A DNA stretch of 32,000 nucleotides from Halomicronema hongdechloris C2206 (GTDB taxonomy: Bacteria > Cyanobacteriota > Cyanobacteriia > Phormidesmidales > Phormidesmidaceae). Position numbers and translations under genes: made by a program. Under the pieces are notes generated by a model. The model made no database searches. It saw only the letters and a list, made by a program, of their open reading frames with translations, and was not told the origin of the DNA. The stretch covers positions 1,380,001-1,412,000 of the forward strand of contig NZ_CP021983.2 in NCBI RefSeq assembly GCF_002075285.3, given 5' to 3'. This document shows, piece after piece, positions 3,505 to 30,355 of this stretch; the first letter of the stretch is position 1; each line of letters begins with the position of its first letter.

Positions 3505-5781
3505 TCAAGTATTCAACGGCAAGATTAAGCCATCCTCAATTTCTTGGATCAGGTGAGTATTGGAGTGATCCCCACTATGCAAGCATTCAACCAAAATATA
3601 GTTTGCATTATAGTATTCAATTAGCTTCTCTTTCTCAGCGTCAGAGAAGCCCCAGTCATAACCAAAATCGCGATACTTTACCATTAAATTTCTTAGACTT
3701 ATAATCCACTCCTCGCCGTGCTTTTGCCACCAAACGTTCATTTTTTCGGCTTCACAAGGTCCCCAAAGGCGCGTTTTCAGCCACCAGTCCGGCAATGCAT
3801 CGATGAGTTTCTGGATTTCATCGCCGATTTCCTTACTTTTCGAAAGATATGAAAGCTCATTTGGAATTATTTGTTCAAGAACGATGGGAACTGCAAATCT
3901 TAATTGGGGCGACAGAGCAGTCTTGAGATTTCTATCAACTGCAAATTCGCAAATCAGAAGCTCATCTTCTTCTGGATTTTCACCAGGAAGATGATCAAAG
4001 TTCAGATGAATTCCTAACGCATAAGGAAGCTCTGTAAAACTGTCTGAATCATCGAAAGCCAAAATCAATGCTAAAGCCCGCAAAGATGACGGTTGATAAG
4101 AGTATTTAAAGGTATTAGCTTTTCTGCTTACCCAACTCAAAAAACACTGAAACTTTTCGTCCTCAAGATAAAGATCAATCTCGTGTTTCGTTGTACGAAA
4201 TAAAGCATCTAGATCTTGAGTATTGTCTATGACGAGTAAGAATACCTCTTTCCAGTGTTCTTTATAGAGTTGTCGTGCTAAATCCTTCCAATTGTTAGAG
4301 GTATAGAATGGTCTGGAAACTAAGTACTCTTGAAAAGTTAAGTGGGAAAACGACCAGATTTCATGAGCTTGCTCAACTAAGATTCCATGCTGCTCTGAAA
4401 TACTTTCTAGTACTGCTCCACTTTCCTCGGTCGAAATCTGAAGATGCTCTGCGATGTAACTACAGGCTTCTGCTTTGTCAAATAATACAAAATTTTCTGT
4501 TTGCTCAAACTTGCGAACTGCTAAGTAGCTTAGTAATTGCTTTCGTTCCTCCAGTGTTAGTTGCCGATAGATTTCACTCTTTGTCTCTCGATTGATTCCT
4601 CGTCGGTCATCCCATTGTCCTAGCAGTAAATCCAACCCTTCCCGATACAGATCAGACCGTTTTTCTGGTAAGCACTGAGAGTCTTCAAAAATCCAACACG
4701 TCAAACTCAAGAGCACTGGTGTTACCGCAAGTTCAGCGGTTTGCGGATGTTCACCAAGCTTTTCCATGAAGTGCTCTTTTAGCGCTTCACCTTCTTCCGG
4801 TGTCTCCACTATTGCCGTAAACCAGTTCAAAGCGAAGCTTTCTACCTGCTCTGGCTTAAAGTCTGCTACCTCTATGGGGATGAACTGTTCTGGAATGTAT
4901 TTCGTCGTTTGAGTACGACAAGTCAGCACAAAGCGATTTTTGTCGTATTGTTTGGCAAACCTTCGCAGTTCATCCTGTACTTTTGGCTGTAAAACGCTGG
5001 AGACTTCATCTAGACCGTCCAACAAAACCATAACTTTTCCTTGCCTTAGAAGTTGCTTGGTTTGCTCTTCTTCGGCTAATTCAAATTCCTCATGGATATG
5101 CCGAAACAGGCTAAATTCAGCTTCATCAACATCCCGTAGCTCAAGCAAATAGGGGATGTAGTTTTCTAGAAAATCACCTTTGGCACAGCCTACTGCTAAG
5201 TGCCTCAAAAATGTGCTTTTCCCGGAACCCGGCTTCCCTAAGACCATCAACCGAGGATATTCTTCGCTTTCGGCGATTTGTAACCCCTGTAACCGCTCTC
5301 CTCTTTTTGCCAGACCCAATCGGTCAAACTGCTTTCGGACATTCTGCCCTTTAAGTAATTCTGGAATATTGGCTCGATAATCCTGTACTTCCAGAACATA
5401 AACATCTACATAAAGCTGATCGACATCAACCTGGCGTCTATTCAGGAGCTGAATCTTACCGAAATTTCTGAGGCCTTTCTCTGATGCTCGCGATCGCACC
5501 TGCTCAATAATTGAGTCAATGGGTGCTGGCGGAGGACGAAGATATTGACGAATGATTTCCGCATCGGCTCCCTCGAAGATGATGTTGCCATCACCGATGA
5601 TGTTGTGATCGCCAGTAATCAGCACTGCATTATCCGCGTTCCCCCCCATGGCCAAAGCGCGATCGCCGGTAACCAGCGTGGCCTGGCCGGATTGAATTGC
5701 CTCTACTAACTGCTGTTGCTGTTCCGGAGTTAAGGATGTGCCCACAACACGCTGAATGATGGATTTGAGGTCTTGAGGCAT
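3505..5781 (-). CDS. NACHT-family STAND NTPase with an N-terminal Gly/Asn-rich adaptor-like motif
   Basis: The ORF-track start at 5793 is a TTG. The first ATG is at 5781 (MPQDLKSIIQRV...). Walker A is LGKPGSGKSTFL, Walker B is VMVLLDGLDEV, followed by FVLTCRT. The pre-P-loop segment QLLNRRQVDVDQLYVDVYVLE is typical of cyanobacterial NACHT proteins. N-terminal aa 31-71 (nt 5569..5691) read SGQATLVTGDRALAMGGNADNAVLITGDHNIIGDGNIIFEG. The C-terminal roughly 300 aa show no WD40 or TPR repeats that I can see. Confidence 0.8.
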   Translation of the reverse strand: MPQDLKSIIQRVVGTSLTPEQQQQLVEAIQSGQATLVTGDRALAMGGNADNAVLITGDHNIIGDGNIIFEGADAEIIRQYLRPPPAPIDSIIEQVRSRASEKGLRNFGKIQLLNRRQVDVDQLYVDVYVLEVQDYRANIPELLKGQNVRKQFDRLGLAKRGERLQGLQIAESEEYPRLMVLGKPGSGKSTFLRHLAVGCAKGDFLENYIPYLLELRDVDEAEFSLFRHIHEEFELAEEEQTKQLLRQGKVMVLLDGLDEVSSVLQPKVQDELRRFAKQYDKNRFVLTCRTQTTKYIPEQFIPIEVADFKPEQVESFALNWFTAIVETPEEGEALKEHFMEKLGEHPQTAELAVTPVLLSLTCWIFEDSQCLPEKRSDLYREGLDLLLGQWDDRRGINRETKSEIYRQLTLEERKQLLSYLAVRKFEQTENFVLFDKAEACSYIAEHLQISTEESGAVLESISEQHGILVEQAHEIWSFSHLTFQEYLVSRPFYTSNNWKDLARQLYKEHWKEVFLLVIDNTQDLDALFRTTKHEIDLYLEDEKFQCFLSWVSRKANTFKYSYQPSSLRALALILAFDDSDSFTELPYALGIHLNFDHLPGENPEEDELLICEFAVDRNLKTALSPQLRFAVPIVLEQIIPNELSYLSKSKEIGDEIQKLIDALPDWWLKTRLWGPCEAEKMNVWWQKHGEEWIISLRNLMVKYRDFGYDWGFSDAEKEKLIEYYNANYILVECLHSGDHSNTHLIQEIEDGLILPLNT

Positions 5782-5907
5782 TTCTTGAGGCAAACGTCGC
5801 TATGTCGTTCTTCACAATCATACCTACTCTACTCCTCCCTCTGTGGAACTGGATCAGCGACAATTCAAGAGCTTTAATAACTTCAGTGATACATTTCCTC
5901 GCTGCAG

Positions 5908-7356
5908 CTAACGTTCTAAAGCCTCACAGCCGCTCGGGCGGATTGGACTCAGAGAATGTGTTTGCTGTAGCCGTTTTGCCTCAACCATAAATCGCTGTTT
6001 ATCTAAGTGCGTCACCTTTGATAGCTCAACCACAAATCCCCTTGCTTGAAATATCAAACCACGTGAAGCTGCTCTCACGATCAGATGCTGTCCTTCAGAC
6101 TCAAAAGTGTATGTATGGCCATGTAGCAAACGCTTTCGCGGCGACCAGTCATCCCGATCTGTGTGGTGTTTAGCTGTTTGAATAGTTGGCGATTGTCTCA
6201 AAATGTAATGCAGGTCCCTCACCACATTCTGGAGTTCTCCTCCCTTCAGATAACCCCCAGCCGATAGCTCTGCTTGATTAGTCTGTCCGATTGAAGAGTA
6301 GCTTGGATATTTGAGATGACTTAAGGCCTGCACCCGTTTCCAGGCACTCTCATCCCCACCTGCAAAAACCGCTGCTGGAATACACTTCTCGGGGTCAACA
6401 ATACTTTGAATAATCCGCTCTACCCGTTCGACATCAATTCCTAAAGCTGCCCCAGCTTCCTTCGCCAACGCCTCAGCATCTCCATTAATCGGCACCCCAT
6501 GCTCAGTAGCCCAATTCTCCCAGCCATAGAACTCGCGTAGAGCATAGGTCAGGGAGTGCGATCGCGACTCCAAGGGGCTCTCCCCCTGCAGCACCGCCTG
6601 AGCCTTGGCCGTCGCCAGGTCTTCCAGCCGTAATACTCCTGGTTGGGCAGGGTGTACCTGAATTGGGGGCCGAAGGTGAGTTGGTTCACTCTGACCTCGT
6701 CTACGGCTAACCGGATACACCCCAATCGCCTCCAACCGTTCCACCCACACGGGTGATACCCGCTGCAAGTTGACATAAGACTGTCCACTGGGGCCAATCG
6801 TTGGTGCGAGTACTGTAAAGCGTCCTTGGCCCAGGGCTTCCCCCATGTGCTGACCGCCCAACCCATCCAGCGAGAAGTTGGTGAAGCGTTTTTCTGGAAC
6901 TCGCACAGCAAACCGCCAGCCACCACTATGGGTCCGTTCTGTAAAAGTTTGCTGCAGTCGAGGATGCTGGCTGAGCCAGTGGCTGATGCGGGCATTACAG
7001 GCCTCTTGGGAGCCAAACTGTTTTACGTCCACATCGAGCCAAACCAGGTTCTGCCATCCTCCCAAAGTACCGATGCCATTGGCAGGATGAGTAAACCAGG
7101 TCCGGAACTCTTGCTCAGTCGGAAGCTGGTGCTGATATTGAGTGTGGCGGATCAGATGAGGAATGCCATTGGCATCCAGAAAGCTAGGATTTTTGCCCGT
7201 AAAAGCAGGGATTAAGGCTCCATTTGAGTCGCGCTTCAACGTGCCGTCTCGCTCCCTTGCCGGATACTGCTGAGGATGCTGAGCAGGCGCTATGGGTAAA
7301 GGGGGCAATCCCTGAGCCTTGAGCCAGTCAAAGGTTTTTCGTAAGTCTGGTTTCAT
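5908..7356 (-). CDS. Bifunctional DNA primase/polymerase (archaeo-eukaryotic primase superfamily, PrimPol N-terminal domain) with a C-terminal extension
   Basis: 482 aa with ATG confirmed at 7356. Motifs are FTGKNPS, NLVWLDVDVK (acidic metal-binding motif) and ERTHSGGWRFAVRV (the sGG.H-type motif of plasmid and phage PrimPol domains). The C-terminal 57-aa module (nt 5959..6129) is shared with two neighbouring proteins; see findings. Confidence 0.7.
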   Translation of the reverse strand: MKPDLRKTFDWLKAQGLPPLPIAPAQHPQQYPARERDGTLKRDSNGALIPAFTGKNPSFLDANGIPHLIRHTQYQHQLPTEQEFRTWFTHPANGIGTLGGWQNLVWLDVDVKQFGSQEACNARISHWLSQHPRLQQTFTERTHSGGWRFAVRVPEKRFTNFSLDGLGGQHMGEALGQGRFTVLAPTIGPSGQSYVNLQRVSPVWVERLEAIGVYPVSRRRGQSEPTHLRPPIQVHPAQPGVLRLEDLATAKAQAVLQGESPLESRSHSLTYALREFYGWENWATEHGVPINGDAEALAKEAGAALGIDVERVERIIQSIVDPEKCIPAAVFAGGDESAWKRVQALSHLKYPSYSSIGQTNQAELSAGGYLKGGELQNVVRDLHYILRQSPTIQTAKHHTDRDDWSPRKRLLHGHTYTFESEGQHLIVRAASRGLIFQARGFVVELSKVTHLDKQRFMVEAKRLQQTHSLSPIRPSGCEALER

Positions 7357-7386
7357 GGTCTTGACCCAATTGAAGAGCCGCCACGG

Positions 7387-10300
7387 TCATCGTTCTCTGC
7401 CTGCACAGGTTGCGGTCTGCGTGCGCGTAGTTTCCAAGTGCTGGGCAAACCGTTGAAAACGGTGGCAATCGTCGGCGGTAACCACTGTGCGTTGAATCTT
7501 GCCTGCCGCCATTTCCAGAATGGTTTGGGGCTGGGGGGCAACCTTGCGAACGATGAGGCGATCGCCCGTTTGCTGCAGTTCATAGGTCTTGCCGCGAAAT
7601 AGGGTGTCTGGTCCCTGGCCTTGACCGATGGCGGACAGAATATGCTGTGACACTTGGGCAACGAACTCGCCCCGCTGCTGGAAAGCTTGATATAGAGCCA
7701 TGTCTTGGGCCATGGCCTGCTGGTCTGCTGCCGCCACGGTAAAACCATGACCATTCGCATCTCTGGCAGAGATACCTAGCTGCTTAATTTTTTCCAGGTG
7801 CAGTGGGTCATGCCCTAAATCACGAGCCGCCCGATACCAGTCCCGAAGGGCTTCTAGGGTGGCAGGTGTTCCTTGCGACCGAGAGGGGAGAGCTTCAGGA
7901 ACAGCCGTCTCGAGCGTTTGAGGTGGCTCTTGGGGCTGCACCTGCCGCCTATTTGGAGGAGCCGCACTGAACTGATTGGTATCAAAGAGGCTCTGGACTT
8001 GGAACTCAGGTTCTTGCGTTTCTACCACTGTCACTGACTGAACGGGTTCTGATGTGGGGACCAGGGGCGAGGTTGCTTCGACAACTGCGGAGCTTTCTAG
8101 CTGCGTATGAACTGTGGTTTCTCCCTGCCAGTCCGCGATCGCCACCTCACTCACCTGCCTCAGTGGCTCCAGATACTTCTCCAGACTTTTCACTGGGAAA
8201 CCTGATGCTGGAATTCTCTCAGCGCCGGGAGCGGTGCATGTCTGGCTGGTGAGAATTAGATCGAGGGTTTGGGCCAGCTGTTTGGCATCATCAAAGAAGG
8301 TCTCGTAGAAGCGGCGATCGCTCGTTTGAACCAGCACCATTGCCTCGGAATGCTGGTCTTTGACGGTCAGATATTGCTGAACATCTGCGGGCAAAGCCTG
8401 CCGATCACTCTGCGTAGGGCTACCCGGAGATTGGATTTCCGGTTTTGCTGCCACCTTCTCTTCTTGGGACTCTTGCTGTTGCGCCTTGGCTGCTTCGGCA
8501 AAGCCCTGCTTCAAGATGTTCTTGGAAAAGATCTGGGCAAACTGGCGATCGGGAATACGAGATTCGCCGCCATAGGGCGTTTGCACGGCGGTCTCCTTAA
8601 ACTGCAGCTGCCCTTCTGGCAGCACCGTGAAGACCATCTCAGCGTCAATGTACATGTCGCCGTTCTGGGTCAGGTAGTGGGTTAGATACAACTCATCCCC
8701 CTGACGCTCCACAACGAGTGGGATGAAGGGCTCATTCTCAATCCGCAAGTGGAACTCATCGGTGTTCATTACCGCCTGATCAATGCCCGCCTCCCGCAGA
8801 AATCGGAGAATTCGCTTTTCCAACTGCCCCATCTGGGGATGATTGGAGCCAGTGGAGGCGCTTACCGTCGGAGCCTCAACCGTAGGTTTTGGTCCTGGCG
8901 TTTCAGTTGTAGGACTGGAGACTGGAGGTTGGATAACGTGGAGGGCAGGAGTTACTGAAGCTTTGGGTGCTGCTGCTTCCACCTTTTCCAGGCTTGGTAG
9001 GGTCACACCAAGGAACTGTCGAGCGATATCTTTGGATTCAAAAGCGGCCAGGGTGTAGTTGCGCTGATGCATTAGCACCGCTAGGGTCTGCTCCAACCGT
9101 TCGGGCGGAATAACGACTTCCATGCGATCGCCCACGGAATAGAAGTCCGATCCGGCAACAGCAATCAACCCCTCATCTAGAAAATATTTGCCTCCCGACT
9201 CCTTTGATTTGGGGGTTTGCAGCACAAAGCCTTCACCGTTGAACTGCGTTTTGAGAATCAACAGTTCATCCAGCGTTTTCACAATGCCTCGGCGGCTGGT
9301 CAGTTCCGTGATGAAGGTCATCACCTGTTGCGGAGTGCTGAAGGCCACCGGCTCTTTGGTCAGCTCTTCCTGAATGTCAAAGCCCTTGGGCATCATCAGC
9401 CCCTGGCGTACCTGCCCCTGGTAGTCGGTGTAATTCAGCAACTTGCCATTCGGGTACTTCTCAAACGCCTTGATCAAGTTGCCGGTGAAGATTTGCCGAT
9501 TGACGCGCCCGGCTTCCTGCTGCTTATCGAACAGGCCATAAACATCATTGCCGAACCAATCTTCGGTTTGAACCATGGCCTCCAATGACCCACCCCGTCC
9601 GGTATTGAACTTAGACAGGGGCACCGTCAACTGACGGACTGAATCGGCCACCAGAATCCGCAGCTTCCAGCGGTTCGGGGCAGCGGGACTGCCGGAGCGC
9701 TTCTTGGCATCAATCCCAGCGACCACCCCGTAGAAGATGGATTTGCTGGCGGGCGTGACCAACCGTAATGGCATCCCCGGCGGAAACTCCTCTAGGACGC
9801 TGGTGACATGAGCCCGTTGCTGATGGATGCGATCATTGAGCTTGTCAATGGCTTTGTCGTCCTGTTTTCCAGCGATCGCCCCCTGCCGATACTGTTCCGT
9901 GGCTGTCTCTAACTCCGCAATGGTTGCCTGGGTTTGCTGGCGGGACTGGTTTTCTAAGTCATCCCGATCGTGCTCCTCAACTGACCTCACACCGTTCAGG
10001 CCCACCTGTTCCCGTACCGCATTGATCACCTGCAACTGGGTTAGGGGCTTGGTCTGGCTCTTTGCGTCCACCATCTCCAGATAAACGGGTCCGGTAAACT
10101 CACTGCGGGTGTTGCCTTCATCGGCCACCACCTCCATTCGCGCCAGAGGACGGGCATCAAGGTCGAGTTGGTCTGCCTCCAAAATGCTCTCGCCCATGGC
10201 TCTGGCTTGGTCCACCAGGTCTCGGTATTCCGACTCAATCAGGCTGTAGAGGGCTTCCTGCTCCTCAATCGGCAGCAGGGGAATTCGCCCGGTCACCTTC

Positions 10301-12480
10301 TTAATCAGGGCGATATCGGAGGCATCGTTTTCCGCTTGGGCGGAGGGGAAGTCCAACTTGGCATTGAGTTCTGGGTCATCTGCTAGCAGTTCGGTGATCA
10401 CCTGCTCCCCGTAGGAATTCATAAAGTCCACCACGTTGTTCAGAGAGATATCCGTCTCCCGTGCGGCAGTAGTGTTGGCGTTGAGGCTAGCCATCTTGCG
10501 ACAGAGAATCGCCCCCGGTCGCTTTTCGGCAGGCAGATCGCCCATCAATAAGGTGTAGCTGGGCAGAGCCACCTGTCCGGTGCGATGGACCCGTCCCAGC
10601 ATCTGCATGAACACGTTGATATCCCGTTCGGCCTGGGCCACAATCATGTGGCGCGGACGCTGGTCGGCGAACTTTTCAGAGGCGTGGAGTGAGATGCCGG
10701 TGGAGCCCGAGCAGTTCAGGAGAATGACATCGGCATCCCCGGCGTTGAACTTGGCCACCGCATCGATCTTGCCTTTAGCCGTGGTCTCTTGATCCGATCG
10801 CACCCGATAACTCATGGAACCATCAGCCGCATAGTCAATGCCAGCTTTACGTCCAGTGACTTCAGTGACGCGGAACCCCGCTCGCTCCAACTGCTGTTCG
10901 ATGTAGTCAATCGGGCTGATAGGAATGCCGCTGAAGTCTGCTTCCCGAATGCAGTCCAGCGCCCCTTCGTAAGCAAGGACTCCTTCGGCTCCCAGTTGCT
11001 CATCCGTTAGCCGCAAGCGATTGGCCTGTCCCCGGTAGTCCTTGGTGACGACATCCCGCGATCGCTCTAGATACCGTTCCAGTAAATCCGCGAAGGAGAG
11101 ATTCATCTCATCTCCCGGCTTCAAGTCCTGGGCATCGGCATAGGCCTGAATGAAACTGCCCATGGTGTTGGCCACGGTAATCACGGGCTTTTCACAGTTC
11201 TGGAGGGCCGCGATCGCGGCCTGCACGGTGGCATCGGCCTTTTGCGCCAACAAGCCTTGCTCAATGCAGTTGTGCATCAGCGACGTAAAGTTGGTACTCT
11301 TCGCTCCGACTTCCCCGATCGCCCCATCTTCCCCAATCGCCTTGGCTTCGGCCTTCAGTTCTTTGCTGATGGTTTTGACTGCTCGTTGTTTGGCTCGGTC
11401 AAAGTCTTTGATGGCCCGCATGGCAGCGGAGAAGTCGTCTGCGACATCGCGATCTACGGGAACCGTATTGGCCTGAAAGGAGATGCCGTCATAGGAGCGC
11501 TCTCGCCGCAGCATCTGCCCGGAAGCGACAAACTTGCTGGCCACAATCTGCTGTAAGGGGACACCGCCACGGGTGAGGATATTCTCCAGTGCAGTCATGC
11601 TGCTAACGCCCAGGCGCAGGTCAGTGCGGCGAGCGTAGAGATCCATCACGTCGGGACGTTTGGCGTAGGTCGCGGAGGAGTAAAAGACGCCGGAGGACTT
11701 GTCGATCAGCTCTCGGACGAAGTCGGCCCGGTCAGGGGGACCCGCTTCCTTCCATCCCCCTTTGCTGCCGCCCGCTTGATGGGCTTCATCCAGAATTAAA
11801 ATCGCCTGGGGAGCCAGCTTACGGAGAAAGTTCCGCCGCAACGGCTCCTTCTTCCCCACCGTCTGCAGCTGGCTATAGGTGGTGAAGACAGCGCTGTAAT
11901 GCCCCAGATTGCCCCGCTGCATTATGGCCTGCATTTCTTCTTTCTGCTTCGCCGCTCCTGCCGTCTTCAAGGCCGCCCCATTAGCCAGCGGAATTTCAGT
12001 GCTGCTATCGGTAATGAAGGGGGTAAATCGCCGCATCCCGATATCGCTGACATCGCGCATCATGTCGGCGTAGAGGGGCTTGTCTTTGGTGATGAAAATG
12101 GCGATTTTGCCTTGCTGCTGGGCATAGCGCATGATGCTGGCACAGATGCGCCCTTTGCCGATGCCGGTCTGGTCGCCCGTGATAAAGCCTGCTCCCTGTT
12201 CCAAGTTACCGATCGCCAGGGCGGCAGCATCCACCTGCTCAGCACTGAAATATTGGTGCAGCTCTTCAACGGAGCCGTAGCCTAAGCGAGTCGCTAGATA
12301 AGCATCAATAGCCCCATGCTGCTGCTCGAACTGGTCGAGAGCCTGTTGAGCCGCGCTGGCCATGTTGCAGGGAATCAGCGTTTGAGTGGAGAAACCCTGA
12401 CTTTTGGGCACATAGGGCACCTGGCGGGGCTGGACATCATAGGCGTCTGAAGGGGTATCAACGGAAAGCGGGGTATTCAT
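7387..12480 (-). CDS. Strawberry-notch / SNF2-type superfamily-2 helicase, a large multi-domain ('polyvalent') conjugative-element protein
   Basis: The track ORF (7387..13074) is trimmed to the ATG at 12480 (MNTPLSVDTPS...), which has GGAG 6 nt upstream and lies 21 nt after the stop of the upstream gene. The 198 codons further upstream are Arg/Pro/Ser-rich and overlap a better ORF in another frame. Motif I is GDQTGIGKGR (nt 12151..12177). Motif II is ILILDEAHQAGG (DEAH). The helicase C-terminal region reads LLNCSGSTGISLHASEKFADQRPRHMIVAQAERDINVFMQMLGRVHRTGQ. The protein is 1697 aa and carries about 700 aa of extra C-terminal modules. Confidence 0.85.
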   Translation of the reverse strand: MNTPLSVDTPSDAYDVQPRQVPYVPKSQGFSTQTLIPCNMASAAQQALDQFEQQHGAIDAYLATRLGYGSVEELHQYFSAEQVDAAALAIGNLEQGAGFITGDQTGIGKGRICASIMRYAQQQGKIAIFITKDKPLYADMMRDVSDIGMRRFTPFITDSSTEIPLANGAALKTAGAAKQKEEMQAIMQRGNLGHYSAVFTTYSQLQTVGKKEPLRRNFLRKLAPQAILILDEAHQAGGSKGGWKEAGPPDRADFVRELIDKSSGVFYSSATYAKRPDVMDLYARRTDLRLGVSSMTALENILTRGGVPLQQIVASKFVASGQMLRRERSYDGISFQANTVPVDRDVADDFSAAMRAIKDFDRAKQRAVKTISKELKAEAKAIGEDGAIGEVGAKSTNFTSLMHNCIEQGLLAQKADATVQAAIAALQNCEKPVITVANTMGSFIQAYADAQDLKPGDEMNLSFADLLERYLERSRDVVTKDYRGQANRLRLTDEQLGAEGVLAYEGALDCIREADFSGIPISPIDYIEQQLERAGFRVTEVTGRKAGIDYAADGSMSYRVRSDQETTAKGKIDAVAKFNAGDADVILLNCSGSTGISLHASEKFADQRPRHMIVAQAERDINVFMQMLGRVHRTGQVALPSYTLLMGDLPAEKRPGAILCRKMASLNANTTAARETDISLNNVVDFMNSYGEQVITELLADDPELNAKLDFPSAQAENDASDIALIKKVTGRIPLLPIEEQEALYSLIESEYRDLVDQARAMGESILEADQLDLDARPLARMEVVADEGNTRSEFTGPVYLEMVDAKSQTKPLTQLQVINAVREQVGLNGVRSVEEHDRDDLENQSRQQTQATIAELETATEQYRQGAIAGKQDDKAIDKLNDRIHQQRAHVTSVLEEFPPGMPLRLVTPASKSIFYGVVAGIDAKKRSGSPAAPNRWKLRILVADSVRQLTVPLSKFNTGRGGSLEAMVQTEDWFGNDVYGLFDKQQEAGRVNRQIFTGNLIKAFEKYPNGKLLNYTDYQGQVRQGLMMPKGFDIQEELTKEPVAFSTPQQVMTFITELTSRRGIVKTLDELLILKTQFNGEGFVLQTPKSKESGGKYFLDEGLIAVAGSDFYSVGDRMEVVIPPERLEQTLAVLMHQRNYTLAAFESKDIARQFLGVTLPSLEKVEAAAPKASVTPALHVIQPPVSSPTTETPGPKPTVEAPTVSASTGSNHPQMGQLEKRILRFLREAGIDQAVMNTDEFHLRIENEPFIPLVVERQGDELYLTHYLTQNGDMYIDAEMVFTVLPEGQLQFKETAVQTPYGGESRIPDRQFAQIFSKNILKQGFAEAAKAQQQESQEEKVAAKPEIQSPGSPTQSDRQALPADVQQYLTVKDQHSEAMVLVQTSDRRFYETFFDDAKQLAQTLDLILTSQTCTAPGAERIPASGFPVKSLEKYLEPLRQVSEVAIADWQGETTVHTQLESSAVVEATSPLVPTSEPVQSVTVVETQEPEFQVQSLFDTNQFSAAPPNRRQVQPQEPPQTLETAVPEALPSRSQGTPATLEALRDWYRAARDLGHDPLHLEKIKQLGISARDANGHGFTVAAADQQAMAQDMALYQAFQQRGEFVAQVSQHILSAIGQGQGPDTLFRGKTYELQQTGDRLIVRKVAPQPQTILEMAAGKIQRTVVTADDCHRFQRFAQHLETTRTQTATCAGRER
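8125..8382 (-). other. MutS domain-I-like (mismatch-binding N-terminal domain) segment embedded in the helicase C-terminal region
   Basis: The segment is VQQYLTVKDQHSEAMVLVQTSDRRFYETFFDDAKQLAQTLDLILTSQTCTAPGAERIPASGFPVKSLEKYLEPLRQVSEVAIADWQ. It aligns by eye with the E. coli-type MutS N-terminus as I remember it: MQQYL.LKAQHPE.LLFYRMGDFYELF.DDAK.AS.LLDI.LT.RG...GE.IPMAG.P.HA...YLAKL...GE.VAICEQ. Confidence 0.6.
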
Positions 12481-12500
12481 AGGAGCCTCTGGGTGAAGCG

Positions 12501-13010
12501 TTACAGAGTCAGGTTGCCGAGCCAGTCCTCCAGAGTGATGTCGTCGTGAAGGTCCAGAGCGTCGGGGTAACTGGGGTGATCCGGTGCCATCGGGACGGCT
12601 GGAAAGGTCAGGCCGTAGTGCCGCATCCGGTCTCGAAATCGCCAGTTGCTGAGGATCAAGGTCTCGCTCCACTGCTGCCGCCACTGGCTCAGGGCGAACT
12701 CCGGATCGGCGTCCGACTCCAATAGGGGGATTGCCTGGGCGGCGTCCAGCTGACTGAGATGGGTTGCGAGTAGCTGCTGAGTTTCGATTTGAGACGTGGC
12801 TGCGGCCCAGTCCTGAATCAGCTGGTCTAAGCGCGTCTGCATCAGGGCCAAGTAGATGGGTTCCTGCAGGCTCTCCAGATCCGGCGGCACTTTGACGATA
12901 AATAACACGCCCATCGCTTCCGGCTGCCAAAGGTAGGGAAAGGTGGGATATTGGGCGGTCATGAAGGGATAAATCCAGCGAGATTGGGTGTAGGTGTCGG
13001 AGGGATTCAT
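12501..13010 (-). CDS. Hypothetical acidic protein between the methyltransferase and the helicase
   Basis: 169 aa from the ATG at 13010 (MNPSDTYTQSRWIYPF...). AAGGAG lies 10 nt upstream. The sequence is rich in aromatic residues and looks globular, unlike the overlapping frame. It is in the same reading frame as the methyltransferase, separated from it only by the TAA at 13110..13112 and 33 codons. Confidence 0.55.
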   Translation of the reverse strand: MNPSDTYTQSRWIYPFMTAQYPTFPYLWQPEAMGVLFIVKVPPDLESLQEPIYLALMQTRLDQLIQDWAAATSQIETQQLLATHLSQLDAAQAIPLLESDADPEFALSQWRQQWSETLILSNWRFRDRMRHYGLTFPAVPMAPDHPSYPDALDLHDDITLEDWLGNLTL

Positions 13011-13109
13011 GGGGCAATTGCTCCTTAAGTTCGGCAAACGTTTGATAGATGGTAGGTACCTGGGCAGCGGGCAACGGGCGATCAGCAGGTCCTTTTCCTT
13101 CAATGACAA

Positions 13110-13970
13110 TTAGATCAATGGAAAGCCTGCGCCTTGCTTGCGGTAGAGGTCACCTGAAATCGACAGATGCTGCGTGACCCGATACTGCTGATACAGGAGG
13201 TAGTAGAAGGCGCGACTTTCGCGGGTGTTATAGCGCTCCGAGCGGAGTTCCTCCTCATGGCCTCGCTTCCCGCCGAGAATCAGTACAGCTCGTCCTTCGG
13301 GTTTCATGACCGATAGCGCCTTTAGAGCAATCACCTGGTCAATTTGGGTCGTCCAGGTGTCGGCGATGGGGAAGCGGCGGGTGTGAAGCTGCTCGTCTTT
13401 GACGGAGCCAAAGGGGGGATTGCAGATGATGACATCATGTTGCTGGTGGGGTTGGTACTCACTGGCATCAAACTGAGTGACGGAGTAGCCTTGTGCCCGC
13501 AAATCAGCCGCGCGATCGGCGTTGAGTTCATTGACGGTAGCTTTAGCCGGATCCGTTCCCAGCAGTAATGCACCATGTCCGGCAGTGGGTTCGTAGACGG
13601 TCTTGTCTGGTGTGACTCCCGCTAAGGATGAGGCCAGAAACGCGATAGGGATGGGGGTGCTGTAGGCCTGCTGCAGAACGCTGGTGGAGGAGCGGACATT
13701 GAGAGCCGGTTGGCGATCGTGCAAGTCCACTAGCCGATCATAGGTGTCGTGAGTCGTAGTTGAGGTTTGGAGGATTCCCTGAGCGGTTCTCACCACCCCA
13801 GCTTCCACGGCTTCATCCACCTGCTTGGCCAGCGCCGTACCCGGAAGCACCGGTTCACCTAACACCGCAGATGCCTGCTGACGAGCCTGGGTGATCGTGG
13901 CAAAGCTCCCCCCCGCCCCCAAGTGACGGGCAAAGAATTCCACCAGTTCCGGCTGATGTGCCATCCCCAT
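13110..13970 (-). CDS. N6-adenine DNA methyltransferase (gamma-class motif order), of the type usually fused to strawberry-notch helicases on conjugative elements
   Basis: 286 aa with ATG at 13970. The AdoMet-binding motif-I-like segment is VYEPTAGHGALLLG, and the catalytic motif IV is VIICNPPFG. The protein ends at ...RKQGAGFPLI. Confidence 0.75.
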   Translation of the reverse strand: MGMAHQPELVEFFARHLGAGGSFATITQARQQASAVLGEPVLPGTALAKQVDEAVEAGVVRTAQGILQTSTTTHDTYDRLVDLHDRQPALNVRSSTSVLQQAYSTPIPIAFLASSLAGVTPDKTVYEPTAGHGALLLGTDPAKATVNELNADRAADLRAQGYSVTQFDASEYQPHQQHDVIICNPPFGSVKDEQLHTRRFPIADTWTTQIDQVIALKALSVMKPEGRAVLILGGKRGHEEELRSERYNTRESRAFYYLLYQQYRVTQHLSISGDLYRKQGAGFPLI

Positions 13971-13973
13971 CGC

Positions 13974-15506
13974 CTACTCACCCGCCGCGAGTTCCAATGG
14001 CGGATGGCGTTGCCTCGGATTGAGCGGGGTCAAGGTTGCGGGAGCGGGCAACTTCAAGTCCTGGCTGAGTTCTCGATCAATGAACCGGAAGTAGGTGATG
14101 TCTTGGGGCGTCAATTCCGACTTGATTTTGCCGTTATCGATGCTGAGAATGGTGCCCCGCTCAGCCGCCTGAAGCTTGAGGCTATTCGGCGTCTCTTCGA
14201 TGCGGTACTGGCTGCCGCCCTGAAAGATGCGCTTACCCTGGACATTAGGCCGACTGCCGATGACATCCAACAGTTTGCGAGCGGTTTTGGCCAGGGCTAG
14301 GGCTGTCAAATCACGGGTCAGTCCCCGATCGGCTGCCGGAGCGAGGTTGCCGAGCTGTCGCGATCGCATCGGCGGTTCCGAAGAAATTCCGTCCAGCCCT
14401 TGAATGTGAATCTGCTGACGGGCTTTCAAGAAATCTGCTTCCTGAGACGCAACCATCTCGTTTTTGAGGATGTCCAGCCCCCAACGGGTCTTGCGGAACA
14501 TCATCAGTTCCGTGCCTTCGCGATCTGTGATGGTGACCATGCGACCCTTGGCGTTGAGGCTGTATTTCTCAGCGACATACAGGCCTCTGCCAGGACTGTA
14601 TGTGGTACCAAATTTCTGTAGTAAGTCCACAGCGGTAGAGGCGACCTGACGACTGCGAATATTAGCGGCAATGGCCACGACCTTGTCGGTCAACTGTTGG
14701 GACGATCTCCGCATGACGCGGGTCGTCTGCTGCATCCATTGCCGGGTAGCCGTTTCGACAACCTGCTGATTCTGGCGATCTAAGACCTCCAGGATGGAGA
14801 CGACATTAGGAGAGTGCGACTTCAATGGTTGAGCCGCCAATGGCTGCTGATTGGGGATGGCAGGTTCAGGTGTCGTTATGGACGAAGGCACTACCGATTC
14901 TGGTAACGGAGAAGGCGTTTCGTGCTCTTTGGTTTTGGCCCGTTCACGGACTTCTGGAGAAACGTCTGCTGTTTTGATCGAACTTTGATCAACCTCTAGA
15001 GCTGGATCTTCCTGTTGATTGGCGGCACTGCTAGGGTGCAGTTGGTTCACCTCTACAGCCCCTTTGCTCAGGCGATAGACCAACTCATCACCAGCTTTGA
15101 TATTGATCGTCCCTTTAACATCGGAGGTAATTGCATCCTCCGTTTGCGCAGACACGTCTAACGCAGCTTGCAACAGCTTCAGCTTGTTGAGACTGAGCTT
15201 GTCGATGGGGTCTTTGTCGGCATAGCCTTCCCGGTAGACAATTTCGCGACCCAGCTTGATTTCAATGGGTTCCGGAGTGTCTTGTGGCAGCTCGTCTAAT
15301 CCGTCCCATTGTTCGTCCGTCTGGGCCTCCGCATTCTCCCGCTTTCGGGCAGCCTGGAGGCGATCGCGCAGCATCTGGATAAAGGCTTGCACCGCCTCTG
15401 CTGTAGATTGAGCGGTCACAGCAGCAATTTCGCTAGAGGCGAGGGTCGTGTGAGCATAGTCTTGCTCGATTTGTTTGGCTTCGCCTGGATTTACAACGGC
15501 TTGCAT
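13974..15506 (-). CDS. Hypothetical protein (510 aa) with a low-complexity acidic/Pro-rich centre and two copies of a module shared with the PrimPol and helicase C-termini
   Basis: ATG confirmed at 15506. I see no HUH, HxH, Walker or other catalytic motif. The clearer C-terminal module is at nt 14061..14228; a weaker upstream copy reads LYVAEKYSLNAKGRMVTITDREGTELMMFRK... Confidence 0.6.
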   Translation of the reverse strand: MQAVVNPGEAKQIEQDYAHTTLASSEIAAVTAQSTAEAVQAFIQMLRDRLQAARKRENAEAQTDEQWDGLDELPQDTPEPIEIKLGREIVYREGYADKDPIDKLSLNKLKLLQAALDVSAQTEDAITSDVKGTINIKAGDELVYRLSKGAVEVNQLHPSSAANQQEDPALEVDQSSIKTADVSPEVRERAKTKEHETPSPLPESVVPSSITTPEPAIPNQQPLAAQPLKSHSPNVVSILEVLDRQNQQVVETATRQWMQQTTRVMRRSSQQLTDKVVAIAANIRSRQVASTAVDLLQKFGTTYSPGRGLYVAEKYSLNAKGRMVTITDREGTELMMFRKTRWGLDILKNEMVASQEADFLKARQQIHIQGLDGISSEPPMRSRQLGNLAPAADRGLTRDLTALALAKTARKLLDVIGSRPNVQGKRIFQGGSQYRIEETPNSLKLQAAERGTILSIDNGKIKSELTPQDITYFRFIDRELSQDLKLPAPATLTPLNPRQRHPPLELAAGE

Positions 15507-15874
15507 GGTCTTTCCTCCAAAGCTTTCAGGGTTTCGAGATTGAGTTGCGGGACGGCGGGGAGACGGTTAATCACTTCCCGCCCTTGTACGGAGAGATAGG
15601 CGGTTTCACCATCCACCAACCACTCGACCAGTTCCGGCTGATAGTCAGCGGCAACAGGCGGGCATTGATAGGTCATCTGGCCGTCCTGCCACTCCACGAC
15701 AGTGACGTCATCAAACAGGACACTGATTTCGCGCGGCACATAGTCCTCGGCCAATCGGGGCTGATCGAATACCGGCAGTAACTCAGCCGCGATTTCGGGA
15801 TGTTCCAGCAATGCCGCCAGCGTTTCAGCGGGGAGCTTGTCTCCCAAGGCTTGGACCAGCATGGGTTCTGTCAC
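15491..15874 (-). CDS. Small, highly acidic hypothetical protein
   Basis: 127 aa. The start is a GTG at 15874, preceded by AGGAGG with a 6-nt spacer; the next ATG is at 15862. By hand count there are about 23 Asp+Glu against 8 Lys+Arg. The gene overlaps the next one by 16 nt. Confidence 0.55.
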   Translation of the reverse strand: MTEPMLVQALGDKLPAETLAALLEHPEIAAELLPVFDQPRLAEDYVPREISVLFDDVTVVEWQDGQMTYQCPPVAADYQPELVEWLVDGETAYLSVQGREVINRLPAVPQLNLETLKALEERPCKPL

Positions 15875-15884
15875 GGGGCACCTC

Positions 15885-17615
15885 CTAAAGCAAACTGCCG
15901 TACTTGTCGATTAGATCAGCGGGGTCAGGATAAGCGGAATTCACGGGGGCAGGCGGTTCCGGCAGCATCGATTCCACCAGTTGCCGCCGTCGCTCCAAGT
16001 CTTCCGTGGTGGGGACTCGTTGGGGACTGCGCTGCATCAAGCGAGCTTGAATCTTGGCCCAGAGCGCTTCGCTGGCTTCTGTCGCCTGCAGATCCGCCTT
16101 GGGAATCTTGATGGTCTGCCGAATCGGGATAGCGGCTTCTCCTTTGGAGGTAAAGCCCGGATTAATCAGGACGCACTTTCCTTGAGGCAGCCGGAGAAAC
16201 TGGCTCGGTTCAAACAGCTTGCGGGTGCGTTCCTGCTCAGAAATCGTGGTGCTGGACTTGCCGCCCCCGCGATTGCGAGATTTCTGCTTGTAGCGGATCT
16301 CTTCGTCCCCTAGAAAGTCGGAGAACATCCGAGCGGCTTCATACTCCTGAGGATTGAAGATGGCCTTGGTGGCACAGGCTCCCAGGATGGCCCGTGCTAA
16401 TTCGCGCCCATAGGTTTTCTCTAGCTGCACTAGGTTTTGAAAGCCCAGGATGACCGACAGTCCATCCTCTCGGTTTTCGTTCAGCCACTGCACTAGAGTC
16501 GGCAAATACAGCGTCGGCAGCTCGTCGATCGCGACAATCAGCGGATCTTGCCGTCGCTTCGCCACATTACGAGTAACGATCATGTGCAGGACGGTTGCCA
16601 CCAAGGGACCAACCACGTCCCGCCGTTCCCGATCCATTCCAAAAATCAGCAGCTGCTTGCCTTCTAGTTCTAGAGGAATCGAGGTCCGACCACAGAAGCT
16701 GCCCAGGACACCTTCCTTCATAAAGCGGGTAAAGGTTTCGCTGGCGCTGCCGACAATGCCGCTAGCAGTTTTCTCCGCATCCTTCACCCCAATTAGCTGG
16801 TTGAACGAGACGCGAATCCAACTGTTCATGTCCTTGGCTGCGGCGATGCGATTCCCCAGATTAGTTAGTCCCAGTACCGCCTGAGCGGTCATGATATCGG
16901 GATACTCGGTAGACTTTGCCAGCATTAACAGCGCTTCGGTAAGCTGATCTCCGGCAGCGGCAAAGAAGCCATCTTCGCTGCTCTGGGTCATCAGCCGGAA
17001 GTTCTTGTTCAACACGGTGGCAATCTGCCGCGCCATTTCCGCATCCGACTCACTGCGTAGGAAATCGATAGGATTACACACGCCGGACTCGGGAAATCCA
17101 GGAGCCAGAACATGGACCTGGTAGCCCAACTTGGCCGCATAGGCCGCATGGCGAGCACTCTGAGTCGGATATTTGAAGTCGTACAACGCGACGGGCAGTC
17201 CTTGCTCTAACGCAGAGCGAATCAACGGGTCGATGACACTGAAGGTCTTACCAGAACCCGGTCCCCCACAAACAGCCACACCCCGTTGTAAATCCGGTAG
17301 ATAAATTGACCGGGCATCTTTCGGGCGTTGAGGTTTGCCGATATAGAGGGAGACCGCATTGTGTTTACGGGCCGTTAGTTGCTTTACAGCTCGCTTGCGA
17401 GCCGCTCCTTTTTCTTTGGCGCTGCCAAAGCGACTGGTGGCCAGCTTGCCCTTTTTGCGATCGCCCAACAGGGCAAAGACCCCCACCAGCAAACAGCAGC
17501 CCAACAAAACTAGGCCATTGCGGGACTGGAGGGAGGAAGCCAGCTGGGAAAAGGACTCGCTAGCGGCTGGATTCGTTTGCGCCAAGGTAGCAGGCTGTTC
17601 TGTAAATGTCTTCAT
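15885..17615 (-). CDS. virD4: Type IV secretion coupling protein (VirD4/TraG/TraD family)
   Basis: 576 aa. The N-terminal TM is GLVLLGCCLLVGVFALLG. Walker A is CGGPGSGKTFSV and the Walker B-like motif is PLIVAIDELPTL. The start forms an ATGA overlap with the upstream gene at 17612..17615. Confidence 0.85.
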   Translation of the reverse strand: MKTFTEQPATLAQTNPAASESFSQLASSLQSRNGLVLLGCCLLVGVFALLGDRKKGKLATSRFGSAKEKGAARKRAVKQLTARKHNAVSLYIGKPQRPKDARSIYLPDLQRGVAVCGGPGSGKTFSVIDPLIRSALEQGLPVALYDFKYPTQSARHAAYAAKLGYQVHVLAPGFPESGVCNPIDFLRSESDAEMARQIATVLNKNFRLMTQSSEDGFFAAAGDQLTEALLMLAKSTEYPDIMTAQAVLGLTNLGNRIAAAKDMNSWIRVSFNQLIGVKDAEKTASGIVGSASETFTRFMKEGVLGSFCGRTSIPLELEGKQLLIFGMDRERRDVVGPLVATVLHMIVTRNVAKRRQDPLIVAIDELPTLYLPTLVQWLNENREDGLSVILGFQNLVQLEKTYGRELARAILGACATKAIFNPQEYEAARMFSDFLGDEEIRYKQKSRNRGGGKSSTTISEQERTRKLFEPSQFLRLPQGKCVLINPGFTSKGEAAIPIRQTIKIPKADLQATEASEALWAKIQARLMQRSPQRVPTTEDLERRRQLVESMLPEPPAPVNSAYPDPADLIDKYGSLL

Positions 17616-18153: not shown

Positions 18154-19863
18154 TCAACTAAGATAGTTCATGGGGTTTTGGGGCTGACCGTTCTGGCGGA
18201 TCTCAAAGTGGAGATGCGGTCCGGTCGAGCCGCCGCTGCTGTTAGCTCGTCCCACCGGATCGCCCTGGGCAATGATGTCGCCCTGTCGGACAAAAAAGCC
18301 CTGCAGATGGGCGTAGTAGGTCTCCGATCCATTGCCGTGATCAATGATGACGAGCCTGCCGTAGCCGCTAGTCAGGGACCCACTAATGCCTGCAAAGGTG
18401 ACCTGCCCTCCATCGGCAGCGCGGATAATCGTGCCATTGGGCGTGCCTAAATCAGTCCCGGCATGGAGACGGCGATCGCCATGAATCGGATGGGTGCGAT
18501 AGCCAAAACTACTGGTAATGGGATATCCCGGTGCCGGATTGATGAAGCCACCGGTGGCAATGCCAGGAGAGCTTGAAGTTCTAGCAACCGGCGTTGGAGT
18601 GGGGCTAGGCTCGCCGGTCTGAGGATCAATTCCTTTCGCCGCAGCTACTTCAGCAGAATCAGTGGTTGAAAGACCTTCCTTAATTTGACCCAGAAAAATC
18701 ATGCCTTTTTCTTGGATAGGCAGCCAGGGAATGGGACCGATAAAGTAAGGCGTACAGCCCAAGTCCACAAAGGCATTGCGGACGCACATGCGAAAGTAAA
18801 GCCCGGTTTCAGCGGTGCCCGTAGCCTCATCGGTTTCCAACACCGCGACCTTGAAGGCATTGCCAAAAGGATGACGCCCGGTCGGTTCTAAGCCACCGTT
18901 AGCGGAAGCTAATGTGCCTCGTCCCCCTTGGACCTGCTGATACTTGCCGGAAATCCACTGGGTACCTTTCACCAGTTCCGGTTGAGCCAATTCCAAGTGA
19001 GCACAGTCAGCCTGACAAGGTACGTTGAAGCCTTCGACATAACTGCCGCTAATGGTGTTCGTCCGATCGCCCTCCGCCGGACCAAACACCACATCCACCA
19101 TCCCCACAACTACACCCTGCTCCACGATGGGATTGGGAAAATTGGCAAAGGGCACATCGGCTAATCCAGGAATCTGGTCGATGACCGATTGCTGCCAGTT
19201 TTGAAAAGTTTCTAGGGGGGCGTCGATCAGTCCTGGGATGGCGCTTAACTCATACTGCTCCAGGTTGAGCTCTCCTAGGCTCAGTTCTGCTAGGACTTCG
19301 TTTTGAACGACCTCGGCAATCGTCTGCGGAACCTCAAGTTGCCCCTGGAGCAAATCGGCGATCGGTGGCACTTCTCGGACAGGCAAATCGGCTAGGTCCG
19401 GAATGGCCTGCACCAAATCCGCGATCGTCTGCCAACCGACCAGTGCCAAATCGGCGAGCCTGAGTGCTTCCCAATCCAGACCGACCAGAGCGGCAATATC
19501 GGACAGGGAAAATCGCTGCAGTTGAAAGCTGTCCTGGAAATCGCCCAGCAGCAGGTATTCATCAGCAGTCTGTCCGGCTTGCCAAAGGCGAGAGGGATCG
19601 TAGCCCAACTCGCGAATCAGATCGGTCGGGGCTTCAAACGAACCTGATGTCAAAATCGCGGGGAGCGATCGCAAGGTGATGCGCGTCCAATCAGGTTTGA
19701 TGCCGAGCATCTGATCCTGAATAACCGGGACGGGCGAACCCGGCTGAGTACTGGAGTGGGCAGGCGCAAGGGGGGCAAGATGTAGGGCGATCGCGAAAAC
19801 AAAGACAAGCAGCCCTATCACAGACCACCTGAGGCGTCTGCGCCTGAAGATAGAAGAGTTCAT
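18154..19863 (-). CDS. Exported M23-family (LytM/lysostaphin-type) metallopeptidase, probable T4SS-associated peptidoglycan hydrolase
   Basis: 569 aa. The N-terminal TM or signal segment is WSVIGLLVFVFAIALHLAPLAPA. The C-terminal M23 motifs are HAGTDLGTPNGTIIRAADGG (HxxxD), YYAHL and GSTGPHLHFEIR (HxH). Confidence 0.85.
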   Translation of the reverse strand: MNSSIFRRRRLRWSVIGLLVFVFAIALHLAPLAPAHSSTQPGSPVPVIQDQMLGIKPDWTRITLRSLPAILTSGSFEAPTDLIRELGYDPSRLWQAGQTADEYLLLGDFQDSFQLQRFSLSDIAALVGLDWEALRLADLALVGWQTIADLVQAIPDLADLPVREVPPIADLLQGQLEVPQTIAEVVQNEVLAELSLGELNLEQYELSAIPGLIDAPLETFQNWQQSVIDQIPGLADVPFANFPNPIVEQGVVVGMVDVVFGPAEGDRTNTISGSYVEGFNVPCQADCAHLELAQPELVKGTQWISGKYQQVQGGRGTLASANGGLEPTGRHPFGNAFKVAVLETDEATGTAETGLYFRMCVRNAFVDLGCTPYFIGPIPWLPIQEKGMIFLGQIKEGLSTTDSAEVAAAKGIDPQTGEPSPTPTPVARTSSSPGIATGGFINPAPGYPITSSFGYRTHPIHGDRRLHAGTDLGTPNGTIIRAADGGQVTFAGISGSLTSGYGRLVIIDHGNGSETYYAHLQGFFVRQGDIIAQGDPVGRANSSGGSTGPHLHFEIRQNGQPQNPMNYLS

Positions 19864-30305: not shown

Positions 30306-30355
30306 GCTACCATCCAAGAAAATAGTTTAAAGAGTGATCTTTCTATATAACCGCA

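Follow-up and report, generated by a model that had tools for sequence, protein, structure and literature searches.

A folded module near the C-termini of proteins of cyanobacterial MPF_C elements, a candidate recruitment signal for type IV secretion

Several signals of type IV secretion systems (T4SS), among them TSA/TSB of F/R1 TraI and the C-terminal signals of Agrobacterium and of Dot/Icm, are read by the coupling protein or by adaptors. Signals of Dot/Icm and VirB/D4 lie at the C-terminus; for the former, hydrophobic or acidic residues close to the end are important. TSA/TSB are internal subdomains of a helicase and the other such signals are unstructured peptides, none of these being a portable folded domain of many protein families. 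Two precedents have been described for a folded C-terminal signal domain that is followed by a tail, namely BID, which occurs on relaxases as well as on effectors (PMC6509941), and XVIPCD, the binding partner of which is the all-alpha domain of VirD4 (PMC8740702). For the MPF_C class of T4SS, Guglielmini et al. found neither an experimental nor a computational study, and the choice of substrates by these systems has hardly been investigated by either approach (PMC4027160). Here we describe a module shared by three proteins of Halomicronema hongdechloris C2206, which are encoded in a conjugative block of the cyanobacterial MPF_C T4SS class on the minus strand of a 32,000-nt stretch of DNA (contig NZ_CP021983.2, positions 1,380,001 to 1,412,000; hereafter the window, with positions counted from its first letter).

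The three carriers of the module are a PrimPol, a methylase-helicase polyvalent protein and a 510-aa protein without known domain. After comparison with related T4SS loci, plasmids and protein libraries, we consider that the module and the flexible tail behind it probably form a bipartite C-terminal signal for recruitment to, or translocation by, the cyanobacterial MPF_C T4SS.

Copies of the module in the window

The carriers are all encoded on the minus strand: the PrimPol at 5908-7356 (Prim-Pol domain at aa 54-197), a SNF2/Sno-type helicase with DUF6908 and MutS-I domains at 7387-13074, and the 510-aa protein at 13974-15506. The initial annotation of the window had proposed that these three otherwise unrelated proteins share one module, with a weaker upstream copy in the 510-aa protein. 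Translation gave exactly the proposed peptides for the module cores of the helicase (nt 7426-7602, aa 1825-1883), the PrimPol (nt 5959-6129, aa 410-466) and the 510-aa protein (nt 14061-14228, aa 427-482), as well as for the core of the upstream copy in the latter (nt 14409-14579, aa 310-366). In Smith-Waterman comparisons against 2000 shuffles, the PrimPol and helicase copies aligned with z 7.3 and the helicase and terminal 510 copies with z 5.8, no shuffle scoring as high in either case, while the PrimPol and terminal 510 copies gave z 4.5 (5 of 2000 shuffles). HHalign was then run with profiles of the ortholog group of each copy, gathered from related loci and from protein searches, and assigned a probability of 98.1% (E 1e-13) to helicase versus PrimPol, 98.5% (E 2e-15) to helicase versus 510, and 98.9% (E 2e-17) to PrimPol versus 510. 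The three terminal copies in the window are homologous, and the similarity, on which the initial proposal had been made to stand or fall, is significant by both methods. When hidden Markov models (HMMs) were trained on a Leptolyngbya boryana plasmid alone or on the window alone, the C-terminal modules of the respective other element were among the top non-self matches, some of these cross-element E-values being weak (up to 3.4).

The HMMs built from the terminal copies detected no further copy in the window and also missed the upstream copy of the 510-aa protein, which scored at chance level against each of the others in pairwise comparison (z -0.6 to 1.4, 2000 shuffles). For this reason an iterated profile of its own and a profile-profile comparison were needed. 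The upstream copy represents a diverged subfamily, hereafter U-type, which is conserved in the family of proteins encoded next to the coupling protein of type IV secretion (T4CP); the terminal copies are referred to as C-type. Comparison of broad U-type and C-type profiles by HHalign gave 86.6% and E 4e-6 over 53 columns, the whole length, after removal of one bridging sequence, a domain in locus L017 that is matched by the HMMs of both types. Together with the same predicted fold, this identifies the suspected upstream copy as a real, diverged paralogue of the terminal module.

AlphaFold predictions describe the module as a unit of about 75-90 aa in which an antiparallel sheet of five or six strands stands between an N-terminal and a C-terminal helix. 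In the model of the helicase unit (pLDDT 77.5), a helix at aa 1800-1816 is followed by five strands at aa 1823-1863 and by a helix from aa 1867; this last helix is modelled to aa 1890, yet beyond about aa 1884 its pLDDT is less than 50, and a low-confidence tail ending ...CAGRER completes the protein. The model of aa 280-510 of the 510-aa protein (pLDDT 84.5) contains both of its copies, the C-type with a helix at aa 393-416, five strands at aa 426-463 and a helix at aa 467-484, and the U-type with a helix at aa 281-299, six strands at aa 301-349 and a helix at aa 353-369. The two have the same helix-sheet-helix architecture, and the last 26 residues of the protein are disordered.

On the DNA, the C-terminal unit of the helicase extends over 7390..7680 (HMM E 5e-19, AlphaFold and HHalign), the module plus tail of the PrimPol over 5911..6129 (HMM E 1e-14 and HHalign), the C-type module of the 510-aa protein over 14055..14330 (HMM E 1e-21, HHalign and AlphaFold) and its U-type copy over 14400..14666 (U-type HMM E 9e-29, HHalign and AlphaFold), all on the minus strand. 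The tail of the PrimPol consists of 16 aa (5911-5958, minus strand) ending ...CEALER, and the disordered tail of the 510-aa protein comprises aa 485-510 (13977..14054, minus strand; pLDDT <50 at model residues 206-231) and ends ...LELAAGE. The module had been placed at the extreme C-termini with a length of about 57 aa: its near-terminal position and the 57-aa core hold, whereas the extreme end is occupied by the tails (16 residues in the PrimPol, 12 in the helicase and 28 in the 510-aa protein, counted from the core), and the folded unit starts about 25 residues earlier with its N-terminal helix.

Neither Pfam nor NCBIfam contained a family covering the module in any carrier scanned, the window proteins included, a sequence search of the PDB with the module was empty, and Foldseek found no significant match in the PDB for either model. 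The top Foldseek matches of the two-copy model, all non-significant, were polo boxes (E 0.009-0.07, probability 0.14-0.28, TM-score 0.13-0.18). The polo-box domain (Plk1 PBD), which binds peptides and proteins, is a tandem of units made of a six-stranded antiparallel sheet and one helix, with a helix in front, and the order of these elements is that predicted for the copies of the 510-aa protein; in contrast, there is no sequence similarity to the module and polo boxes are eukaryotic. The resemblance of the predicted folds may serve as a lead at the fold level and gives no classification.

Distribution, terminal tail and carriers

A scan of one genome per species with a T4CP alignment yielded 43 loci, of which 42 are cyanobacterial. 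An iterated HMM, run on the six-frame open reading frames (ORFs) of these loci, of L. boryana plasmid loci and of the window, identified 43 modules in 42 ORFs, nearly all of them ending 10-30 residues before the stop codon. Among 1.84 billion representative proteins searched with HMMER at E ≤ 1e-3, only 80 clusters were matched, and about 8 of these are large repetitive surface proteins that match spuriously. A consensus tblastn search of 72,556 plasmids matched 11 records, all cyanobacterial, and a word-indexed search with the three tails, the index of which is blind to divergent copies, returned only 11 close fragments. Carriers of known taxonomy are cyanobacterial throughout, and include Anthocerotibacter (Gloeobacterales), a Cyanophyceae metagenome-assembled genome (MAG), Leptolyngbya, Nostoc, Fischerella, Crinalium and others. 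In the set of 153 non-redundant carriers, the distance from the last module to the C-terminus has a median of 13 aa (interquartile range 11-22), and is within 35 aa for 93% of them.

The module is followed by a variable linker and a flexible tail of 10-30 residues, which usually ends with a hydrophobic residue, Glu or Asp, and Arg or Gly. The endings observed include LER, IER, VER and FER, MGE and VGE, LELG, VEVG and EIG, IDRD, and MQR and LSR; among the orthologues of the 510-aa protein the ending is conserved as ...MGE or ...VGE. Such a terminal motif is present even in proteins in which the last module detected at the threshold used is far from the end. A hydrophobic-[ED]-[RKH] sequence at the very C-terminus was found in 18% of carriers versus 2% of the other long ORFs of the same loci (p 1e-8), and a broader tail pattern in 67% versus 10%, these p-values being optimistic, since the data had already been seen when the pattern was defined and the carriers are related by phylogeny. 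Within the window only the three carriers have endings of this type, ...CEALER, ...CAGRER and ...LAAGE. The tails have a median net charge of 0, and richness in Gln is not the rule. A cysteine precedes the terminal ER by 4-5 residues in the PrimPol (SGCEALER, 5911-5934) and in the helicase (ATCAGRER, 7390-7413), and is absent from most orthologues.

Carrier families were defined by clustering of the non-module parts. The family encoded directly after the T4CP, to which the 510-aa protein and its relatives belong, accounts for 28 of the 46 carrier ORFs in the loci, followed by methylase-SNF2 polyvalent proteins (9 ORFs) and PrimPols (3 ORFs). The other carriers comprise a DUF3991-Toprim primase (P0129), methylase-only short forms, hydrolases with SLT, M23 or PG_binding_1 domains (P0078, P0081, P0104, P0117 and P0130), a large family of 137-184 aa in which bacterial TSP3 calcium-binding repeats are joined to the module, and other large uncharacterised proteins. 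PrimPol homologues of other cyanobacterial plasmids align only to aa 1-350 of the window PrimPol and are without the module.

Relaxases are the canonical, defining substrates of coupling proteins, and three carriers belong to this class. P0077, with two modules, is a MobA/MobL relaxase of the MOBQ type (Pfam 4e-72, NCBIfam MobQ 4e-78) that ends ...GFER. It occurs on two contigs of 16 and 9 kb, on which no T4SS gene was called; encoded there are a resolvase, a DUF3854 protein and a toxin-antitoxin pair. The MOBP relaxase of Crinalium epipsammum pCRI9333.05 carries one module, which ends 27 residues before the stop, and its tail ends ...QLEL, while that of Leptolyngbya sp. NIES-3755 plasmid1 carries one module ending 21 residues before the stop and has a tail that ends ...LEIGD; both plasmids were typed as mobilisable by MOB-suite. 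A relaxase on a plasmid without T4SS must be recognised in trans by the T4SS of a helper.

In most of the related loci a carrier is encoded directly downstream of the T4CP, and this order, at times with one small ORF in between, extends from Anthocerotibacter to Nostoc. In the window, too, the 510-aa carrier lies downstream of the T4CP (15885-17615, minus strand; VirD4/TraG family, with TrwB_AAD_bind 4e-28, TraG-D_C 3e-26 and T4SS-DNA_transf 2e-25), separated from it by one ORF of 127 aa (15491-15874, minus strand). The hydrolases P0078 and P0130 are located within T4SS loci, P0130 directly upstream of the T4CP, and P0127 is two genes behind a T4CP. Every context examined with enough flanking DNA belonged to one of two kinds, T4SS loci of the cyanobacterial class and mobilisable plasmids. 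This finding, together with the near-terminal position of the copies detected by HMM, agrees with what the initial annotation had expected of a T4SS-linked module, and differs from the predominance of non-mobile chromosomal proteins by which it would have been refuted.

TSP3 repeats are typically extracellular, and peptidoglycan hydrolases act outside the cytoplasm. The module-free M23 hydrolase of the window (18154-19863, minus strand) starts with MNSSIFRRRRLRW followed by a hydrophobic stretch, that is, with a signal sequence containing an arginine run, possibly of the Tat type. The full-length module-free M23 hydrolases of related loci, that of the window included, have such an RRRR-plus-hydrophobic signal (maximum Kyte-Doolittle value 2.0-2.6). 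By contrast, neither the five hydrolases that bear the module nor any TSP3 protein checked has a hydrophobic N-terminal segment (maximum Kyte-Doolittle value <1.0), and a missed signal peptide is excluded for P0078, since its open frame has space for just 6 more upstream codons. As judged from the sequences, signal peptides and modules are complementary. For extracytoplasmic hydrolases and TSP3 proteins that lack a signal peptide, an export tag at the C-terminus is the simplest reading.

Proposed recruitment to the secretion channel and its alternatives

According to the model that we propose, the module would be a small autonomous protein-interaction domain with a flexible tail of 10-30 residues behind it. 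Carriers would be brought to the secretion channel, most probably through binding to the coupling protein encoded by the neighbouring gene, and would then be exported, the DNA-processing ones reaching the recipient together with the transferred DNA or alongside it. The model predicts all three window carriers as substrates (the 510-aa protein, the PrimPol and the methylase-helicase polyvalent protein), with the T4CP as the presumed receptor. A T4SS signal should lie at or near the C-terminus, as does the module in 93% of the 153 carriers (within 35 aa). It should also occur on known substrate classes (relaxases, primases and anti-restriction proteins), here MOBQ and MOBP relaxases, PrimPol and Toprim primases and methyltransferase-SNF2 polyvalent proteins, and be linked to one T4SS/T4CP class, as is the case here save for one T4CP subclade without detectable modules. 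The proposal of the initial annotation that the module is a T4SS recruitment or translocation domain is supported by this convergent comparative evidence, and is not proven. From the same evidence we infer the binding of the coupling protein, the actual translocation of the carriers and a functional role of the tail motif.

Several observations weigh against a recruitment signal. Some relaxases of this class are without the module, namely the PF03432 relaxase of locus L051 and MobF of Nostoc pNPUN03, and no relaxase was recognised by Pfam or NCBIfam anywhere in window positions 1-32000. The window nonetheless contains genes for a T4CP, a VirB4-like protein, VirB10 and a hydrolase; its relaxase is either encoded outside the window or of an unrecognised type, or else the element is not self-transmissible. 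Tandem modules occur in up to 3-4 copies, which would be needless for a pure export tag, although BID, too, is found in multiple copies. In a few hydrolases the modules are internal with other domains behind them, and in P0104 and P0117 a distance of 180-211 aa separates the C-terminus from the end of the last module detected at the threshold. For one T4CP subclade (L016, L035-L038 and L044) the HMM detected no module, only short degenerate look-alikes being found by eye. In the nearest relatives, L003 and L005, the polyvalent proteins end in Toprim and a helical WxWHLTAKxLG motif, without the sheet module, although that of L003 retains the ending ...AEVER. To these should be added the optimism of the tail statistics mentioned above.

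The main rival is an assembly on the donor side, in which the module would link its carriers at the channel, for instance by sheet augmentation, with no export of the carriers, and the T4CP-adjacent 510-family protein with its U and C copies would serve as hub or adaptor of a DNA-processing complex. Such a role would suit a gene that follows the T4CP in most loci and encodes two diverged copies, the frequency of tandem copies, and the weak fold resemblance to polo boxes, which form pairs and are peptide-binding. We regard this assembly as unlikely, because it leaves unexplained both the signal-less, periplasm-acting hydrolases and TSP3 carriers and the presence of the module on relaxases of replicons without visible T4SS; if the hub docks on the T4CP, it merges with the recruitment signal proposed above. 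A nucleic-acid-binding domain of DNA-processing enzymes, for recognition of single-stranded DNA or oriT for example, might be suspected from the fact that all three window carriers act on DNA and that relaxases and primases carry the module elsewhere. The domain is, however, near neutral or acidic overall (median net charge -1, median pI 6.0), which argues against nucleic-acid binding, it is also attached to peptidoglycan hydrolases and to small TSP3 proteins without any link to DNA, and no known DNA-binding fold was matched, so that this explanation appears very improbable.

An equally small chance is given to a domain for targeting the cell envelope or peptidoglycan, an anchor like SH3b or LysM. 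The module does stand beside SLT, M23 and PG_binding_1 domains in several hydrolases, but these already possess PG_binding_1, the majority of carriers are DNA enzymes of the cytoplasm (relaxase, PrimPol, Toprim, methyltransferase-helicase), and neither the constant near-C-terminal position nor the conserved terminal tail would be expected of a wall anchor. As to a chance or compositional similarity without common origin, the pairwise identity is indeed just 20-30% and the upstream copy is non-significant in pairwise comparison; this explanation is refuted by the HHalign E-values (1e-13 to 2e-17), by the independent search of the whole library with its 80 clusters of nearly all C-terminal matches, and by the consistent AlphaFold fold of two different copies.

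The proposed recruitment signal may be extended, tentatively and with less confidence than the signal itself, to a "conjutome", in which a polo-box-like sheet-helix domain and a hydrophobic-Glu-Arg terminal peptide would together mark the substrates of cyanobacterial MPF_C systems. Its members would be relaxases, primases and polyvalent anti-restriction enzymes, together with signal-less peptidoglycan hydrolases and calcium-binding proteins that would be injected to open the thick wall of the recipient. A dedicated T4CP-adjacent protein with two diverged copies would act as pilot or adaptor, and the domain would have been taken up by mobilisable plasmids as a means of hijacking MPF_C machines.

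If the module is a recruitment signal, its HMM would list the transported proteins of MPF_C elements in any cyanobacterial genome, and the mobilisation of small relaxase-only plasmids in cyanobacteria would be explained. The module would then also provide a portable tag of about 90 residues for bringing cargo such as Cas proteins and recombinases into cyanobacteria that are hard to transform.

The conjugative block and the known signal systems

The methylase (13110-13970) and helicase (7387-13074) ORFs of the window are parts of one gene, broken in two where a single base has been deleted between 13119 and 13120 (region 13110-13125, minus strand). The window reads GGCTTTCC-ATTGATC at this site, where L007 and L010 read GGTTTTCCGATTGATC, and relatives encode an intact protein of about 2225 aa. 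The split is either a real frameshift, leaving a split gene or pseudogene, or an assembly error. The first 200 residues of the helicase, which are rich in R, P, S and G, were considered as an out-of-frame artefact, and this was rejected after they aligned in frame with intact relatives. As a whole, 7387-13970 encodes a cyanobacterial polyvalent protein with N6-methyltransferase (the N6-methylase fragment, 13110-13970, minus strand), SNF2, DUF6908 and MutS-I domains. In a survey of 2017, polyvalent proteins were scarce in cyanobacteria, MutS-I was found in polyvalent proteins of Bacteroidetes and Firmicutes only, and a delivery of the methyltransferase-SNF2 polyvalent proteins together with DNA was proposed (PMC5512222).

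Upstream of the helicase module, a helical motif, LRDWYRAARDLGHDPLHLEKIKQLG, was noted by eye at 7774-7860 (minus strand, helicase aa 1739-1767). By eye, the motif recurs in front of the module in further helicases, in the short carriers P0071 and P0089 and in the Toprim primase P0129, and it also ends the module-less polyvalent proteins of L003 and L005; it possibly belongs to the C-terminal unit as well. The N-terminus of the 510-aa protein contains a repeated hairpin-like motif, IEIKLGREIVYREG and INIKAGDELVYRLSKG, at 15225-15266 (aa 81-94) and 15060-15107 (aa 134-149), preceded by a start of the EAKQIEQDY type. As seen by eye, this motif is common to many T4CP-adjacent carriers and to the 667-aa and 768-aa proteins of L. 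boryana, and it looks like a second conserved domain, without assigned function. Part of the 667-aa L. boryana carrier (L001, 16009-18012) looks, by eye, similar to the centre of the PrimPol (6400-6555, aa 268-319; ...REFYGWENWATEHG...GIDVERVERIIQSI), which suggests further domain shuffling among carriers.

The T4CP of the window is 97% identical to those of Leptolyngbya sp. SIOISBB and a Halomicronema MAG. ORFs of 133 aa resembling the 127-aa ORF occupy the same position in Nostoc punctiforme pNPUN03 and in Anthocerotibacter, and the 127-aa product is a candidate adaptor or chaperone. The block further encodes TrbI/VirB10 (20607-22109, minus strand) and a 937-aa protein with weak matches to the VirB4/TraC ATPases (24727-27540, minus strand). 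A ParA is encoded on the right side of the window, and STAND/caspase-type genes are found on both sides. The defence-like genes flanking the conjugative block (423-1469, 3505-5793 and 30338-31999) encode a caspase/CHAT protein, a NACHT-EAD10 STAND NTPase (lower G+C, 0.43-0.47) and, on the right, an AAA_16/NACHT protein. The related element L055 (15765-25358) is likewise trailed by STAND, TIR, NB-ARC and CHAT genes and an integrase, and the defence genes beside the conjugative block may be a recurrent cargo or mark an integration hotspot.

The BID of Bartonella effectors and alphaproteobacterial relaxases resembles the module in several respects: it folds as a domain of about 100 aa, lies near the C-terminus and makes a bipartite signal together with the short tail that follows, it is common to relaxases and otherwise unrelated proteins, and it may be present in several copies (PMC6509941). 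It differs in fold, being a four-helix bundle with a hook in contrast to the helix, 5-6 strands and helix predicted for the module, in the positive charge of its tail, those of the module being about neutral with a hydrophobic-acidic-Arg/Gly ending, and in belonging to another phylum and T4SS class. No sequence match links the two, and Foldseek gave no significant match against the PDB, which includes BID structures (PMC6509941). The XVIPCD of the Xanthomonas antibacterial effectors (X-Tfe) is, like the module, a conserved C-terminal domain (about 120 aa) attached to unrelated catalytic domains, peptidoglycan hydrolases included, and its folded N-terminal part binds the all-alpha domain of VirD4 while a flexible tail is needed for translocation (PMC8740702). 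Unlike the module, it has its own sequence motifs and a Gln-rich tail, the module tails not being Gln-rich as a rule, and the carriers of the module are mostly conjugation and DNA-processing proteins; neither sequence similarity nor a Foldseek match connects the module with XVIPCD.

By these comparisons the module appears to belong to neither BID nor XVIPCD, which are all the same its functionally closest systems. The comparative evidence supports, and does not prove, a reading in which this new family of domains has, in a T4SS class that lacks earlier studies, the role that BID and XVIPCD play elsewhere. If this is true, the module would be the third, structurally unrelated T4SS signal made of a folded domain plus a tail, and a third unrelated case would strengthen the view that bipartite signals evolve repeatedly.

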